Notes: generated from the sequence alone by a model not told the origin. A DNA stretch of 64,000 nt from Patescibacteria group bacterium (GCA_038064595.1 JBBTSV010000009.1:8769-72768); one strand, 5' to 3'; positions 16,830 to 51,967 are shown, numbered from the stretch's first letter. Program-made: numbers and translations.

Positions 16830-17522
16830 CTACGAGATCCAGTCAATCGGGGTCTCGCCGTGAGCCTCCAGATAACCGTTCACTTTTTTAAAATGGCCAT
16901 TGCCGAAGAAACCCGATGCGGCCGAGAAGGGTGAGGGGTGCGCGGATTCAAGCACCAGGTGTTTAGTGCGGTCAATATGCGCGCCCTTGGCGCGAGCATA
17001 GTTGCCCCACAGCATGAAGACGAGGCGCGTGCGCTCCTCGGAAAGCGTGCGGATAACTGCATCGGTAAACTGCTCCCATCCTTGATTCTGATGCGAGCCA
17101 GCCGTGTGTGCCCGCACGGTGAGAGTTGCATTGAGAAGTAAGACCCCCTGCCTCGCCCACCGCGTGAGATCTCCTCCGCGATTGATGGACACTACGTGTC
17201 CATCAATCGCGCCGTATTCATCTGCAATTTCTTTGAAAATGTTTTGAAGTGAGGGCGGGGTCGCGACCCCCTCATCGACCGCGAAGCAGAGACCGTTGGC
17301 CTGATGCGCCCCATGGTAGGGGTCTTGGCCGAGAATAACGACCTTCACCTGCTCAAAGGGGCAAAGATCAAACGCTCTGAAGATATTCTTGGGCGCGGGA
17401 TACACCACTCCCTCCTGGTATTCTTTTTTTACAAAACTGGTCAGCACTGTGAAATATTCTTTTTCAAATTCACCAGAGAGCTTCTCCTTCCACGTTTTCT
17501 CAATCTTCACCTCCATAAACAT
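16830..17522 (-). CDS. ung: Uracil-DNA glycosylase (family 1)
   Basis: VVILGQDPYHGAHQANGLCFAV (GQDPY water-activating loop) and HPSPFSA near the C-terminus. The start codon overlaps the upstream gene's stop as TAATG, inside a REP. Confidence 0.9.
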   Translation of the reverse strand: MFMEVKIEKTWKEKLSGEFEKEYFTVLTSFVKKEYQEGVVYPAPKNIFRAFDLCPFEQVKVVILGQDPYHGAHQANGLCFAVDEGVATPPSLQNIFKEIADEYGAIDGHVVSINRGGDLTRWARQGVLLLNATLTVRAHTAGSHQNQGWEQFTDAVIRTLSEERTRLVFMLWGNYARAKGAHIDRTKHLVLESAHPSPFSAASGFFGNGHFKKVNGYLEAHGETPIDWIS

Positions 17523-17547
17523 TAGGACACTGGGTGTCCTAACTTTT
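17520..17547. repeat. REP palindrome copy R1 (TTAGGACAC-TGG-GTGTCCTAA)
   Basis: Same palindrome flanks the RAYT gene at 48662, 49338 and 49391. Here it encodes the last eight residues and the stop codon of the MGMT-like gene. Confidence 0.85.
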
Positions 17548-46580: not shown

Positions 46581-48581
46581 ATGTCGGCAGACGCATCTCT
46601 CGAAGGCCCCATCGTCATGACCCGCAAGGGCTTTGGCTTCTTCCCCTTGGGCGACGATCAAGAAGACCTCCTGATCCCGCCGGAGTGGACCGGCCACGCG
46701 CTCTCAGGCGACGTGGTCAAGGTCGAGCGTGTCGGGACCTATCAAGACCCTTCAGGCCGGATGGCTCCGAGGGAGGCTGGGAAGGTGGTCGAGATCGTCT
46801 CGCGCGCTCGAGAGACATTTGTCGGCACTCTTATTGCCCCGACGCCAGAAGTCGGGGTCCCGACCGAAGCGTCGGGAAAGAGTGAGATCACATTGCTCCA
46901 GTGTGACTATAAGAAGATGTATGTGCCGATTGTCATACTCGACCGCGGTGATGCACCGCTCGGCTACAAGGTGCTTGTGCGCCTGGTAAGCTGGGAGGCC
47001 GACAAAGCGTATCCCCTCGGCGAGATTGAAGAAGTGATCGGCCCCGCAGGAAATCATGAGACCGAGATGCGCTCGCTCGCACTTGGGCAGGGGTTCAGGA
47101 GCGACTTCCCTCCTGGCGTCGTCACAGCAGCACGGGATCTCGAGATGCGCGGTCGGCAGATGCTCGCGGACGAAGCCGAGAATCCCAAACGACGTGATTT
47201 TAGAAAAGTACCGACCTGCACCATCGACCCCTTTGATGCCAAAGACTTTGACGATGCCCTCTCGGTGCAGACCTTGCCCGATGGAAACATTGAAGTGGGC
47301 GTGCACATCGCCGACGTCTCCTTTTTTGTGAAGCCCGGCAACGAGCTCGACAAAGAGGCGCGTGAACGGGCCACGAGTGTCTACCTCGTCGACCGCACGA
47401 TCCCGATGCTCCCCCACATTCTCTCCACCGACCTCTGTTCACTCAATCCCAATGAAGATCGTCTGTCGGTCTCGGCAGTGTTCACGCTCGATACGGATGC
47501 AAACATTGTGAATGAATGGTTCGGCGAAACGGTGATTCACTCTGATAAACGCTTCACGTATGAGAATGCACAAGAGGTGCTCGATGCCGGAAAAGGCGAG
47601 CTTCATGCTGAACTCTCGCTCCTCTACGACCTCTCGAAGAAGATCCGCACGCGCCGCCAAGAGAAGGGGGCGATCGAGTTCGACACCGCTGAAGTCAAAA
47701 TCGAACTCGATGAGACGGGTAAACCAATCGCAATAAAACTCAAAGAGCGCAAAGCGACCAATCTCCTCATTGAAGATTTTATGCTCCTTGCCAACGAGGC
47801 CGTCGCCAAGCACTTGAATAAGCTCACCCGTAACGGCGGCCCCCACTTCGCCTCGCTCTACCGTATCCACGACGAGCCGGACTCTGACCGCATCGAGAAC
47901 CTCGCACACCTCCTGCGCGTCATGGGCTATCACCTGAAAACTGCCGGCGGCAAGGTCACCGGCGCAGAACTGAACAAACTCATGGAGTCGGTCAAGGGCA
48001 CGCCCGAGGAATACCTGGTCAAGACCGCGACCCTGCGCTCGATGAGTAAGGCGGTCTACACGACCCGCAACATTGGCCACTTTGGTCTGGCGTTTGAGTT
48101 CTATACTCACTTCACCTCCCCGATCCGTCGTTATCCCGACCTTATCATCCACCGCTTGGTGAAGGCGCACAGCGGCGGCGACCCTATCACGCCCGCGGAG
48201 ATGCAGGAGTTTGACCGGCTCGCGGTGCACGCCTCGGAGCGCGAGGTGGCGGCCGCCGACGCCGAACGTGATTCTATCAAGATGAAGCAGGTTGAATTTC
48301 TCGCGGAACATATCGGCGAGACCTTTGACGCCGTGATCTCGGGCGTGACCGAGCGCGGCCTCTACGTAGAAGAGCAGACCACCCACGCCGACGGCATGAT
48401 CAACATCCGCGTCCTCGGCGAGCTCCCGGATCAGGTGGGTGATTACTTCGACTTCGAAGAAAAACAGTACAGGCTCGTCGGCCGTCGGACCAAGAAGAGC
48501 TACCGTCTCGGCGACCCCATCCGCGTGAAGCTCATCGCCGCCCGTATTGCCGAAAAAGAGCTCGACTTCCTCCCCGCCTAA
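46581..48581 (+). CDS. rnr: Ribonuclease R (RNB family 3'-5' exoribonuclease)
   Basis: Cold-shock-like N-terminus; RNB catalytic motifs (DPFDAKDFDDALS, GHFGLAFEFYTHFTSPIRRYPDL); C-terminal S1 domain. In-frame E2 element near the N-terminus (EVGVPTEASGKS). Confidence 0.9.
   Translation: MSADASLEGPIVMTRKGFGFFPLGDDQEDLLIPPEWTGHALSGDVVKVERVGTYQDPSGRMAPREAGKVVEIVSRARETFVGTLIAPTPEVGVPTEASGKSEITLLQCDYKKMYVPIVILDRGDAPLGYKVLVRLVSWEADKAYPLGEIEEVIGPAGNHETEMRSLALGQGFRSDFPPGVVTAARDLEMRGRQMLADEAENPKRRDFRKVPTCTIDPFDAKDFDDALSVQTLPDGNIEVGVHIADVSFFVKPGNELDKEARERATSVYLVDRTIPMLPHILSTDLCSLNPNEDRLSVSAVFTLDTDANIVNEWFGETVIHSDKRFTYENAQEVLDAGKGELHAELSLLYDLSKKIRTRRQEKGAIEFDTAEVKIELDETGKPIAIKLKERKATNLLIEDFMLLANEAVAKHLNKLTRNGGPHFASLYRIHDEPDSDRIENLAHLLRVMGYHLKTAGGKVTGAELNKLMESVKGTPEEYLVKTATLRSMSKAVYTTRNIGHFGLAFEFYTHFTSPIRRYPDLIIHRLVKAHSGGDPITPAEMQEFDRLAVHASEREVAAADAERDSIKMKQVEFLAEHIGETFDAVISGVTERGLYVEEQTTHADGMINIRVLGELPDQVGDYFDFEEKQYRLVGRRTKKSYRLGDPIRVKLIAARIAEKELDFLPA
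46838..46877. repeat. E2 nested-palindrome element copy 4, in frame in rnr
   Basis: ccccgacgccagaagtcggggtcccgaccgaagcgtcggg. Confidence 0.8.
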
Positions 48582-48582
48582 T

Positions 48583-48603
48583 TACGGACATCGTAAGTCC
48601 GTA
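48583..48603. repeat. TACGGAC-atcgtaa-GTCCGTA stem-loop motif (fourth copy of the ACGATGTCCGTA family)
   Basis: 7-bp inverted arms; related copies at 1958, 2373 and 44717. Confidence 0.6.
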
Positions 48604-48645
48604 TATTTACTTCGCCACGGCGACGGCTTCGTCGAACTTGACGGA
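48600..48645 (-). other. Duplicated remnant of the smc 3' end (encodes LSVKFDEAVAVAK plus stop), a direct repeat of 49752-49797
   Basis: cggcgacggcttcgtcgaacttgacggagag is shared between the two sites. Both encode the identical SMC C-terminal peptide with a few silent differences. Confidence 0.7.
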
Positions 48646-48661
48646 GAGCAGTCTCCGCCCA

Positions 48662-48688
48662 AAGTTAGGACACCCAGTGTCCTAACTT
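48662..48688. repeat. REP palindrome R2 (AAGTTAGGACAC-CCA-GTGTCCTAACTT)
   Basis: Perfect palindrome; contains the RAYT stop codon. Confidence 0.9.
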
Positions 48689-49329
48689 TCTATCTCATCC
48701 GCTCTTGATGCGAGGTCTGGATTTGAAATGATTTCCTCTATAGTTTGTTCATATTCGCTTGGCATTCCGAGCACAGGAGAAATCTCATTGGACTCGATAA
48801 TTGAAGGAAAATTATGATTACCAAAATAGTCGAGATGACTACTCCACCGATAATTTTGCAAAGCAGTCAGAGCACCTGATACATCCTGTACCTCTCCTTT
48901 TCTCCATTCGGGATGCGTATAGTCAAGCGGGTTCAAATGAATATAGAACGGGATGTAAAGGAAGTGGGCGTCTCGCTCAATGAGCACTTTACGGTATTTG
49001 CCTTGCCACAAGACACCCGATCGCTCGTATCGCCTATTAAAGTATTTTGTGTACCCCATATTCATCTTGTGCATGAACATTGAAATTCCGTTTTCGACCC
49101 TTTCTGATACCAAGAGATGATAGTGATTTTTCATCAGACAGAAAGCATGAATATCAATGAGCCGCTCGCGTTTACGGTGCTCGTCCTTCCGTTCATTCAA
49201 AATATAATTCGGTACGGGATGTACGTCATTGAGAACGAATAAATCATGGGTAAACCTCACTCTGTCTTGATCGTCCATAACAACGTCTCGTTTATCGACT
49301 CCGCGCCCAATCAGATGCCAAAAGTTCAT
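48682..49329 (-). CDS. REP-associated tyrosine transposase (RAYT; IS200/IS605 TnpA-like HUH-Y1)
   Basis: HUH motif in CLMKNHYHLLV and a downstream catalytic Tyr region (YTKYFNRRY), about 215 aa. Flanked on both sides by the same palindrome, which is the classic REP-RAYT arrangement. Confidence 0.8.
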   Translation of the reverse strand: MNFWHLIGRGVDKRDVVMDDQDRVRFTHDLFVLNDVHPVPNYILNERKDEHRKRERLIDIHAFCLMKNHYHLLVSERVENGISMFMHKMNMGYTKYFNRRYERSGVLWQGKYRKVLIERDAHFLYIPFYIHLNPLDYTHPEWRKGEVQDVSGALTALQNYRWSSHLDYFGNHNFPSIIESNEISPVLGMPSEYEQTIEEIISNPDLASRADEIES

Positions 49330-49337
49330 AGCTCTAT

Positions 49338-49359
49338 GTTAGGACACCCAGTGTCCTAG
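49338..49359. repeat. REP palindrome R3
   Basis: gttaggacacccagtgtcctag, immediately upstream of the RAYT start codon. Confidence 0.85.
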
Positions 49360-49390
49360 TTTTTGTCCTATCCCCTGTTTACCATTTCTG

Positions 49391-49420
49391 AAAGTTAGGA
49401 CACTGGGTGTCCTAACTTTC
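49391..49420. repeat. REP palindrome R4 (inverted relative to R3; forms a REPIN-like doublet with a 31-nt spacer)
   Basis: aaagttaggacactgggtgtcctaactttc. Confidence 0.9.
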
Positions 49421-49422
49421 AG

Positions 49423-49749
49423 TTACTCAATGACAAAATCGAGTTGTATTTCTGGGATGCCGAGAGACTTCCCATACTCAACCGCGTCATGCCAGGTCGA
49501 TTTATTGGAGTATAAAATCTCAAACGTTTTGTCCTTAAATACTACGAGCACTTTGTCGTGGCCCGGCTCCCAAAAATGCACGTACCACTTCCCACCTTTA
49601 AGATAGGAGCCAAATTCGGCCGCGAGGTTCTCGCTTATACTTACTTTGTGCACTATCCAATCCCCACTGTGCCACGTCTTTAAAATCTGTACGTTATCGA
49701 GCACACCTCTATCGCTCAAACTATTCTCAATTACCGTGCCCGTAAGCAT
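49423..49749 (-). CDS. Hypothetical protein (108 aa) carried inside the REP/RAYT module
   Basis: ORF MLTGTVIENSLSD...KWYVHFWEPGHDKVLVVF..., no known family. Its stop abuts REP R4 and its start abuts the smc stop. Confidence 0.4.
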   Translation of the reverse strand: MLTGTVIENSLSDRGVLDNVQILKTWHSGDWIVHKVSISENLAAEFGSYLKGGKWYVHFWEPGHDKVLVVFKDKTFEILYSNKSTWHDAVEYGKSLGIPEIQLDFVIE

Positions 49750-49750
49750 G

Positions 49751-51967
49751 CTATTTCGCGACGGCGACGGCTTCGTCGAACTTGACGGAGAGAAGCTTAC
49801 TGACGCCGTCTGAACCCATGGTCACGCCGTAGAGGATACTGGTGCGGCTCATGGTCTCGCGGTTATGGGTGATTACAATCAGCTGACTCTTCTGCGCCAA
49901 GTTTTCGATCATGTCGCCGTAGCGGCGGCTGTTGGCCTCGTCGAGCGCCGCGTCGGTCTCGTCGAGGATGAGGAAGGGCGGCGGGTTGACCTGGCTCATG
50001 GCGAAGATGAGTGCGATCGAGGTGAGCGCGCGCTCACCACCTGAAAGCTGCATGAGTGAGCGCACCTTCTTCTTGGGTAGATTGACCGCAATCTCGATGC
50101 CCGCGCGCTCCTTCTTTTCTTCTGCTCCACTCTCGAGCTCGGTCTCATCGAGATCGTCAAGTACTTCCACTTCTTCAGGCTCTTCGAGCGTGAGGCGTGC
50201 GTTCCCGCCACCGAACATAAGCGCAAAATATTCACTAAAGGAGGCATTCACCTTTGCTAACCCTTCTGAGAAATGCTTAGCTAGTTCCGTATCCAAGTCG
50301 GTGATGAGTCCGCGCAGGCTCGCGGCAGACTTCGCGAGATCGTCGAGCTCACTCGCGAGGAATGTCTCGCGCTCTGACACTTCTTTATGCTCCTGACGAA
50401 TCTCTTCACCGGTACCCCCCGCTTCTTCAAGGCGGATCTTGAGGCGCTCAAGACCGCGCTGACGGTCTTCTTGTGCCTTACGCTCTTCTTCTGGCACACG
50501 CTCAAGCGGCGTGTACGAGAGCGCCGCAATGCCCGCGATCGCGAGTACCTCGCTCTTATTGCGCTCGAGCGTCTCCACAAGAAGCGTGAGTTCATATTCT
50601 CGTGCTTCATACTTGGCTATCATCCCTTCCTCATGCGCCTTTGACTGCGCTGCGTCGAGGATTCGACGGCGGATCTCACGCCCCGTTTCTTCAAGCACTA
50701 TCATCCCTTCTCTCGCGCGGGCGCGCGCAAGCTCGGCTTCTTCAAGAGCGCGAGAGGTTTGGGTAAATTTTTCTGCAAGCTCGGTCTGTTCACGTTCAAG
50801 CTTGTGTACCGCATCTTCTTCATCAGAGAGCCGCTCACTGTTTGGCGATCCATGCCGTGTAAAGAAAAAACGAATTGCACGAGTAATTGCGTCGAGTGCC
50901 GCACGTAACGACTCGACGGTCCCCCCTGCGTTCGCCGACTGCGTCTCCACTTCTGCGCGTAGCGACTCAAGCTCCTCACGCGCGACCTTGGCATATGGCT
51001 CACGCGCAACCGCTGCTGCACGACGCTTCACTTCAGCAAGTGCACCTTCAACACGACCCGTCTCCCGTGAGAGTGTGGCGCGCGCGCTTGAGAGCTCGGA
51101 GACCTCGCGCTCTGCTCTGCGCAGTACCTCAGTACGCGATATCGTCTCCTTGTCTGCCGACTTGGGGTCGGCGACCAGATCAAGCTCCGCGCTCACGGCC
51201 GCGAGTCGCTCCTTGGCATGCGCAAGCGCGACTGCTGCTGCCTGCTTCTCTCTCACTACATAGGCATCTTCGATAGAGAAGTATGTTTGTGCAAGACTCG
51301 TGAGCTCGCTCCGGAGCGCGTCTGAACGCTCAAGCTTCTTAACTTGACCTTCCAAGAAGCGCAGATGCGGTGCGAGCTCGCGACGGAGTGAGTTCACTTG
51401 GACAATGTTGTCCTCCGTCTTCTCGAGCTTACGCGTGGCCTCCTGCTTTTTAAACTCATACACTTTGAGCCCAAGCGCGTCCTCGAGCATCGCGCGGCGA
51501 TCTCGCGCTGACGCGAGCAGGATCCGGTCTGCCTCGCCTTGAGAAATAATGTGGTGACTCGTGTCGCCGATGTTCGCCCCCGCAAGCAACTCCTCGATAT
51601 CACGCAGTCGGACTCGAGAACCATTAATCGAATACTCGCTCGTCCCATCACGGAAGACAACGCGCTCGATCGCCACTTCGTCAAAATCGATTTTGAAAAT
51701 GCGTCGCGCATTATCGAAGACGACCACCACTGATGCACGGTTTGCGCGAGACGCCGTGTGGGAACCGTTGAAGATAAGATCCTCCGCGCGCTTGCCGCGC
51801 ATGCTCTTCATCGACTGCTCGCCAAGCGCAAAGCGAAATGCTTCGGCGACATTACTTTTGCCGGAACCATTCGGCCCTACGATCGCCGTAGTCGCACTCG
51901 AAAAGTCGAGTACCGTTTTCTTGGCAAAGGATTTAAACCCAACGATCTCAAGTCGCTTTAACATCAC
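49751..51967 (-). CDS. smc: SMC-like chromosome segregation ATPase, short form (738 aa)
   Basis: Walker A VGPNGSGKSN, coiled coils, ABC signature LSGGERALTSIAL, Walker B/D-loop ILDETDAALD. Confidence 0.75.
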   Translation of the reverse strand: MMLKRLEIVGFKSFAKKTVLDFSSATTAIVGPNGSGKSNVAEAFRFALGEQSMKSMRGKRAEDLIFNGSHTASRANRASVVVVFDNARRIFKIDFDEVAIERVVFRDGTSEYSINGSRVRLRDIEELLAGANIGDTSHHIISQGEADRILLASARDRRAMLEDALGLKVYEFKKQEATRKLEKTEDNIVQVNSLRRELAPHLRFLEGQVKKLERSDALRSELTSLAQTYFSIEDAYVVREKQAAAVALAHAKERLAAVSAELDLVADPKSADKETISRTEVLRRAEREVSELSSARATLSRETGRVEGALAEVKRRAAAVAREPYAKVAREELESLRAEVETQSANAGGTVESLRAALDAITRAIRFFFTRHGSPNSERLSDEEDAVHKLEREQTELAEKFTQTSRALEEAELARARAREGMIVLEETGREIRRRILDAAQSKAHEEGMIAKYEAREYELTLLVETLERNKSEVLAIAGIAALSYTPLERVPEEERKAQEDRQRGLERLKIRLEEAGGTGEEIRQEHKEVSERETFLASELDDLAKSAASLRGLITDLDTELAKHFSEGLAKVNASFSEYFALMFGGGNARLTLEEPEEVEVLDDLDETELESGAEEKKERAGIEIAVNLPKKKVRSLMQLSGGERALTSIALIFAMSQVNPPPFLILDETDAALDEANSRRYGDMIENLAQKSQLIVITHNRETMSRTSILYGVTMGSDGVSKLLSVKFDEAVAVAK

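Follow-up and report, generated by a model that had tools for sequence, protein, structure and literature searches.

The junction between smc and rnr, two convergent essential genes usually found abutting, can with moderate confidence be regarded as a recombination hotspot with a variable filling. The duplication of the smc end found there is most likely the scar of a single-crossover-type import that brought in a replacement gene end, and it is unlikely to be a footprint of RAYT transposition. We prefer the import scar because copies of gene tails occur both with and without a RAYT, their divergence lies at third codon positions, they show affinity to foreign alleles, and RAYT homologues elsewhere lack such a duplication.

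We analysed a 64-kb stretch of DNA (the window) from a groundwater CPR bacterium (Patescibacteria, with relatives among the Kaiserbacteria) and compared its smc-rnr junction with about 90 related Kaiserbacteria loci (labelled L0xx). The features are listed in Table 1; all elements named in a preliminary description of this DNA are present where that description had placed them. The insert is AT-rich (GC 42-45%, with 42% for the RAYT gene, against 56% for the window) and holds two ORFs, the Y1_Tnp gene and ORF108. Pfam, NCBIfam and a fold search with ORF108 gave no integrase and no tyrosine or serine recombinase in the insert, and no known RNAs or tRNA targets were found within the 64-kb window. 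An assembly artefact is ruled out: independent ENA and Logan assemblies show an identical structure, with which one strain variant agrees.

Table 1. Features of the smc-rnr junction and the distant REP1 copy (positions counted from the first letter of the window)
Feature	Position	Strand	Remarks
Solo REP1	17522..17542	.	In a short intergenic gap, distant from the RAYT; one such copy in 64 kb
rnr (RNase R)	46581..48581	+	Pfam RNB 374 bits; right-hand conserved flank, convergent with smc
REP2 hairpin	48583..48603	.	TACGGAC-ATCGTAA-GTCCGTA; -5.9 kcal/mol, z -3.0
S', displaced smc tail copy	48607..48651	-	Last 14 codons plus stop, LLSVKFDEAVAVAK; copy of the direct repeat
REP1 copy R1	48661..48690	.	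Hairpin 3' of the RAYT gene; -11.8 kcal/mol, z -9.0
RAYT-like HUH-Y1 gene	48682..49329	-	215 aa; Pfam Y1_Tnp 36.7 bits (cutoff 23); H69-Y70-H71
REP1 copy R3	49339..49359	.	1 mismatch; proximal half of the doublet, 5' of the RAYT
REP1 copy R4	49388..49422	.	16-bp stem; distal half of the doublet; -16.6 kcal/mol
ORF108	49423..49749	-	108 aa; starts 1 nt past the smc stop
S, working smc tail	49751..49795	-	Final 14 codons with the stop; direct repeat, left copy
smc	49751..51967	-	738 aa; Pfam SMC_N 233 bits; TIGR02168 551 bits; left-hand conserved flank

The convergent order of smc and rnr is kept in about 70 of 80 sister loci. Empty sites, which the preliminary description had proposed to look for in sister genomes, do exist: in eight species (L011, L020, L021, L022, L024, L027, L043 and L084) the two stop codons are separated by 2-8 nt or have an 8-nt overlap, and in other species the gap is filled with up to 3118 nt. 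Three distinct families occupy this one site (RAYT1/REP1, RAYT2/REP2 and RAYT3/REP3).

The Y1_Tnp gene of the window, a transposase of the domesticated type, carries the HUH motif and a predicted catalytic tyrosine (within YIHLNP) on a modelled Y1 (IS200-like) fold. All of the 14-16 homologues compared have H69, H71, Y129, H131 and N133. The AF2 model (pLDDT only 69) resembles ISDra2 TnpA, IS608 TnpA and TnpA_REP in a fold search (2xm3, 2a6o and 4er8; E 5e-4 to 9e-4, probability 1.00). As phmmer found no link to 4ER8 and a profile search returned only ISDra2 (E 0.55), it is the fold search that ties the gene to a solved RAYT. The score against NCBIfam NF047646 (REP_Tyr_transpos) is 41.1 bits, under the cutoff of 80. 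The RAYT-like identity proposed earlier is upheld by the combination of Y1 fold, HUH motif, conserved tyrosine, inverted flanking REPs and REPIN-like doublet.

REP1 has the form TTAGGACAC-NNN-GTGTCCTAA and occurs at 48665-48685, 49339-49359 (1 mismatch), 49395-49415 and 17522-17542, against zero matches expected by chance in the window. The RAYT stop codon sits within the R1 stem; R4 points the opposite way to R1 and R3 and lies directly against the stop codon of ORF108. The flanks and the inverted doublet are as first described: of the three REP1 hairpins around the gene, two form a perfect inverted pair (48661-48690 and 49390-49419; 30 nt, 100% complementary, DNA-hairpin z about -9), and R3-R4 can also fold as a single long REPIN-type hairpin. 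The doublet is conserved in L089, L090, L092 and L108, and inverted REPs flank the RAYT in more than 10 orthologous loci as well as in L098 and L101. Additional REP copies, on which the first account depended, were found as the solo REP1 in the window and as REP1-type hairpins on 16 metagenome contigs with no detected RAYT, smc or rnr. Absent from that account is the REP2 hairpin, which forms the 25-nt spacer between S' and the rnr stop. REP2 is present five times in the window, flanks group-2 RAYTs (L025, L028, L032, L034 and L072) and adjoins tail copies in L036 and L089; it is part of a second RAYT/REP system.

The two copies of the smc tail lie 1144 nt apart; 48608-48651 and 49752-49795 share 41 of 44 nt, including an exact core of 32 nt. 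Read on the minus strand, S and S' each encode LLSVKFDEAVAVAK plus stop, and the 3-4 differences all fall at third codon positions or inside the stop codon, so the claimed repeat with silent differences is real. So is the target-restoring arrangement, with smc intact and a displaced tail copy on the far side. The order ORF108-REPIN-RAYT-REP-S' is common to the window and a sister species (RAYT 80% identical), and therefore the window unit is no fresh insertion. Of the earlier idea of a RAYT with cargo inserted at the smc end, the tail repeat thus stands, whereas a recent discrete unit does not, given orthologues in the same junction with differing cargo and the order shared with a sister species. 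The working smc tail of L090 differs from S' of the window at 1 nt, that of the window itself at 3 nt, and strain variant L003 carries a mosaic version of S'. With only 3-4 differences, the window pair alone is equally compatible with a foreign allele and with an old in-situ duplication followed by gene conversion. All four contigs with an identical SMC protein are filled, so that an empty allele was not found in the same population. The smc tail as a hairpin target is ruled out, S' DNA showing no significant structure (z -0.98). A circular form suggested by a 1172-nt repeat-to-repeat Logan contig is not usable as evidence because its 30-nt terminal overlap equals k-1 (k=31 graph) across the 32-nt exact repeat.

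Tail copies of smc (S') or of rnr (R', with R the working tail) occur in at least 17 loci, a figure that under-counts decayed copies because detection relied on protein-level similarity. The length of the duplicated tail varies by lineage (11-34 codons), and so does the layout: S-REP..RAYT-REP-S' in L092 (22 codons), R'-REP-RAYT-REP-R in L059, L094 and L108, R' left and S' right in L010 and L013, and S'-REP3-RAYT3-REP3-S' in L042. In L059, L089, L094 and L108 the RAYT units are bounded by rnr-tail copies instead of smc-tail copies. Duplication does not come with RAYT insertion as such: RAYT1 homologues located at different junctions (L098 and L101) have flanking REPs and no duplicated neighbour end, and tail copies are also seen without a RAYT (L016, L017, L030, L033, L036, L039, L041, L049, L053 and L064). 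Overall, tail copies recur with and without a RAYT, and sister species have both empty and filled sites.

It might be argued that the RAYT itself drives integration and that the REP-bounded unit is a site-specific integrative module in the smc or rnr tail. The Y1 enzyme would cleave at REP hairpins on single-stranded DNA and join the unit, along with a gene tail it had captured, into the conserved gene end, the duplication then resulting from HUH chemistry. Three RAYT/REP families at one junction fit this mechanism, as do REPs that overlap or abut the smc stop (L046 and L092) or the rnr stop (L059 and L108). The same smc-tail copy brackets REP3-RAYT3-REP3 in L042 (its relative L036 has one copy and lacks a RAYT), and RAYT1, although incongruent with smc, always sits in the same junction within the clade. 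In all 12 RAYT loci with a detected copy (the window, L010, L013, L034, L042, L059, L072, L089, L090, L092, L094 and L108) the copy is at most about 30 nt from a REP, an observation that counts against import and could mean that RAYT/REP activity makes the joints; none was detected in the RAYT-bearing loci L025, L028, L032 and L046. Nonetheless, we consider RAYT-driven integration rather unlikely. At least nine loci have tail copies but neither a REP nor a RAYT that can be recognised, duplication is not seen around RAYT1 homologues with different neighbours, and the duplicated tails (33-100 nt, variable) are unlike known Y1 transposition. In the latter (IS608, ISDra2) cleavage takes place no more than about 20 nt from the foot of the hairpin, and we know of no target duplication in it or in IS200/IS605 insertion. 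Published accounts moreover report no evidence of RAYT self-mobility (10.1101/2021.07.10.451892). The wider claim, that Kaiserbacteria RAYT/REP units are true integrative modules (integrase-free Y1 HUH insertion into the last codons of either essential gene, with a replacement end supplied) and that the smc-rnr junction is a RAYT-serviced cassette-capture site for three families, seems equally doubtful.

The differences between working and displaced tails are of the coding type. In 12 S/S' pairs they are distributed over the codon positions as 11:7:83, with 69 synonymous against 17 non-synonymous codons (an excess that protein-level detection inflates to an unquantified extent), and every S' keeps its stop; in 17 R/R' pairs the distribution is 62:29:146. 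Many copies also look foreign. The nearest foreign tail is closer to S' than its own working tail in L017 (0 against 9 differences), L036 (3 against 11), L039 (3 against 14) and L042 (2 against 13). In a set of 83 species, the final 15 smc codons do not follow the rest of the gene in GC3 (r=0.17), against r 0.53-0.69 for the six preceding 15-codon windows. As a sign of nativeness the GC3 of S versus S' is suggestive in L017, L036 and L031, though not decisive because empty-site genomes have AT-rich tails too. Cargo travels together with a piece of tail: an ORF of the Y family comes immediately after S' in L013, L031 and L049, and in L032 it comes immediately after the working smc tail. The displaced copies resemble working alleles.

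Coding-type conservation of S' could also point to a C-terminal RAYT extension by read-through of the TAG stop: in the window RAYT and S' share one frame, which past the TAG reads DTGCPNFGRRLLSVKFDEAVAVAK without a stop. This is extremely improbable. S' is also present without a RAYT, we know of no TAG recoding in this clade, and a RAYT-S' read-through fusion is rejected on the frames of L010 and L090, where S' differs in frame from the RAYT and stops lie between.

A third possibility is one ancient in-situ event that inserted a RAYT unit and duplicated the smc-rnr junction (S/R'-RAYT-S'/R), through a long staggered break or a tandem duplication. Vertical inheritance with differential loss of S' or R' would have followed; cargo would have entered at both copies of the junction, with the working tails acting as gene-conversion donors. 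The position of R' (left) and S' (right) in L010 and L013 is exactly what such a duplication predicts; the S/R' junction looks intact in L089 and L108, and an S'/R junction is present in the window. Conservation of the REPIN spacer and overall order among the window, L089, L090 and L108 agrees with it, the 32-nt exact core of the window and a 37-nt identical R/R' stretch in L089 fit gene conversion, and RAYTs are generally inherited vertically in a fixed extragenic space (PMC5581495; 10.1101/2021.07.10.451892). Still, this history appears improbable. S' is far from its own S and near the tails of other species in L017, L036, L039, L042 and L049, and the GC3 of the tail is decoupled from that of the gene even in empty-site genomes. 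REPs that exactly abut stops (L046, L059, L092 and L108) would need repeated precise deletions, and three unrelated RAYT families would each need a separate event. RAYT and smc identities, finally, are uncorrelated.

RAYT orthologues (64-86% identity) occupy the smc-rnr junction of many species with differing cargo genes. RAYT1 is found there in L010, L013, L046, L059, L089, L090, L092, L094-97 and L108, and its cargo includes dCMP deaminase with CPDase (L089), small X and Y ORFs, and ORF108. RAYT1 identity does not track smc identity (r=0.10): the window and L089 share 86% in the RAYT and 72% in smc, against 68% and 81% for L010. The relationships of the two genes are incongruent. As part of the import reading, it is plausible that the RAYT has long resided in the junction while small accessory genes were exchanged on either side, that the duplication is tied to the junction and not to the enzyme, and that the locus exchanges horizontally.

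According to the import reading, incoming DNA would recombine within the conserved last 11-30 codons of smc or rnr and supply its own tail and stop, so that the essential gene remains whole and its former tail ends up on the far side of the insert. The topology would be that of a single-crossover (Campbell-type) insertion, and we infer that host homologous recombination on short homology, rather than the RAYT, joins the ends. The 44-nt copies of the window, with their 32-nt exact core, could in turn recombine to remove the 1144-bp insert and leave smc intact. Against this, RecA-type recombination works poorly with 30-45 nt of homology in those bacteria where it has been measured.

High turnover of small genes between two core genes is also seen at core-gene transfer hotspots (for example in E. 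coli, PMC2617782) and with homology-facilitated illegitimate recombination (PMC3240628), where recombination in conserved flanks drives the exchange. The difference is that the flanks here consist of the final few codons of two genes that converge and abut, that duplicated gene ends are left and that three RAYT/REP systems share the site. Integrative elements and genomic islands that enter a tRNA or protein gene at its 3' end and restore it (attL/attR) likewise have repeats that equal the target 3' end, an intact gene with a displaced copy on the far side, empty sites in relatives and AT-rich content. Here, however, a tyrosine or serine integrase is lacking, the insert measures only 1.1 kb, repeats differ in length with the lineage and either of two abutting genes can serve as the target. 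The catalytic fold and hairpin ends are those of IS200/IS605 elements (IS608, ISDra2), and the REPs abut specific short contexts (here stop codons). The window unit is nevertheless not an IS200/IS605 insertion sequence: it has no TnpB partner, occurs once in the window with no sign of multiple identical copies, ends in one perfect palindrome family instead of distinct left and right ends, and comes with a 44-nt duplication.

The closest likeness in gene content is to RAYT/REPIN systems (E. coli TnpA_REP, PDB 4ER8, and the RAYTs of Pseudomonas fluorescens), which share the Y1 HUH fold, short perfect inverted palindromes flanking the gene and an adjoining REP doublet; solo REPs elsewhere and one extragenic space kept across related species are likely further points in common. 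The window gene differs in its below-cutoff NCBIfam score, in a REP copy number that looks low (1 solo REP1 in 64 kb), in its incongruence with the neighbouring core gene and in the duplicated 3' ends of flanking essential genes that bound the units. To our knowledge such bounding ends have not been described for RAYTs, and in the literature searched we found no paper linking RAYTs to CPR/Patescibacteria.

RAYTs are regarded as sedentary and vertically inherited, with an unexplained benefit. Here a single junction of two essential genes combines three RAYT/REP families, turnover of accessory genes and, per event, a restored end with a displaced copy. If the RAYT/REP machinery makes or stimulates the joints, RAYTs would have a tangible part in setting up a site of gene exchange, and target-restoring integration of a new kind would be added to what HUH-Y1 enzymes do. 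If host recombination is responsible, the locus would be a clean natural example of tiny streamlined genomes gaining genes between abutting essential genes without damage, and the tail copies would be readable records of past donors.

The 108-aa ORF reported between the REP doublet and smc is indeed there. It belongs to no Pfam or NCBIfam family, and a search with its AF2 model (pLDDT 95.5) gave no informative fold match and nothing integrase-like. Only 11 homologues were found, all in Patescibacteria, and most of those with retrievable context lie in unrelated neighbourhoods. An orthologue with 65% identity holds the identical position in L090/L091; ORF108 is a small, confidently folded accessory gene coupled to smc.

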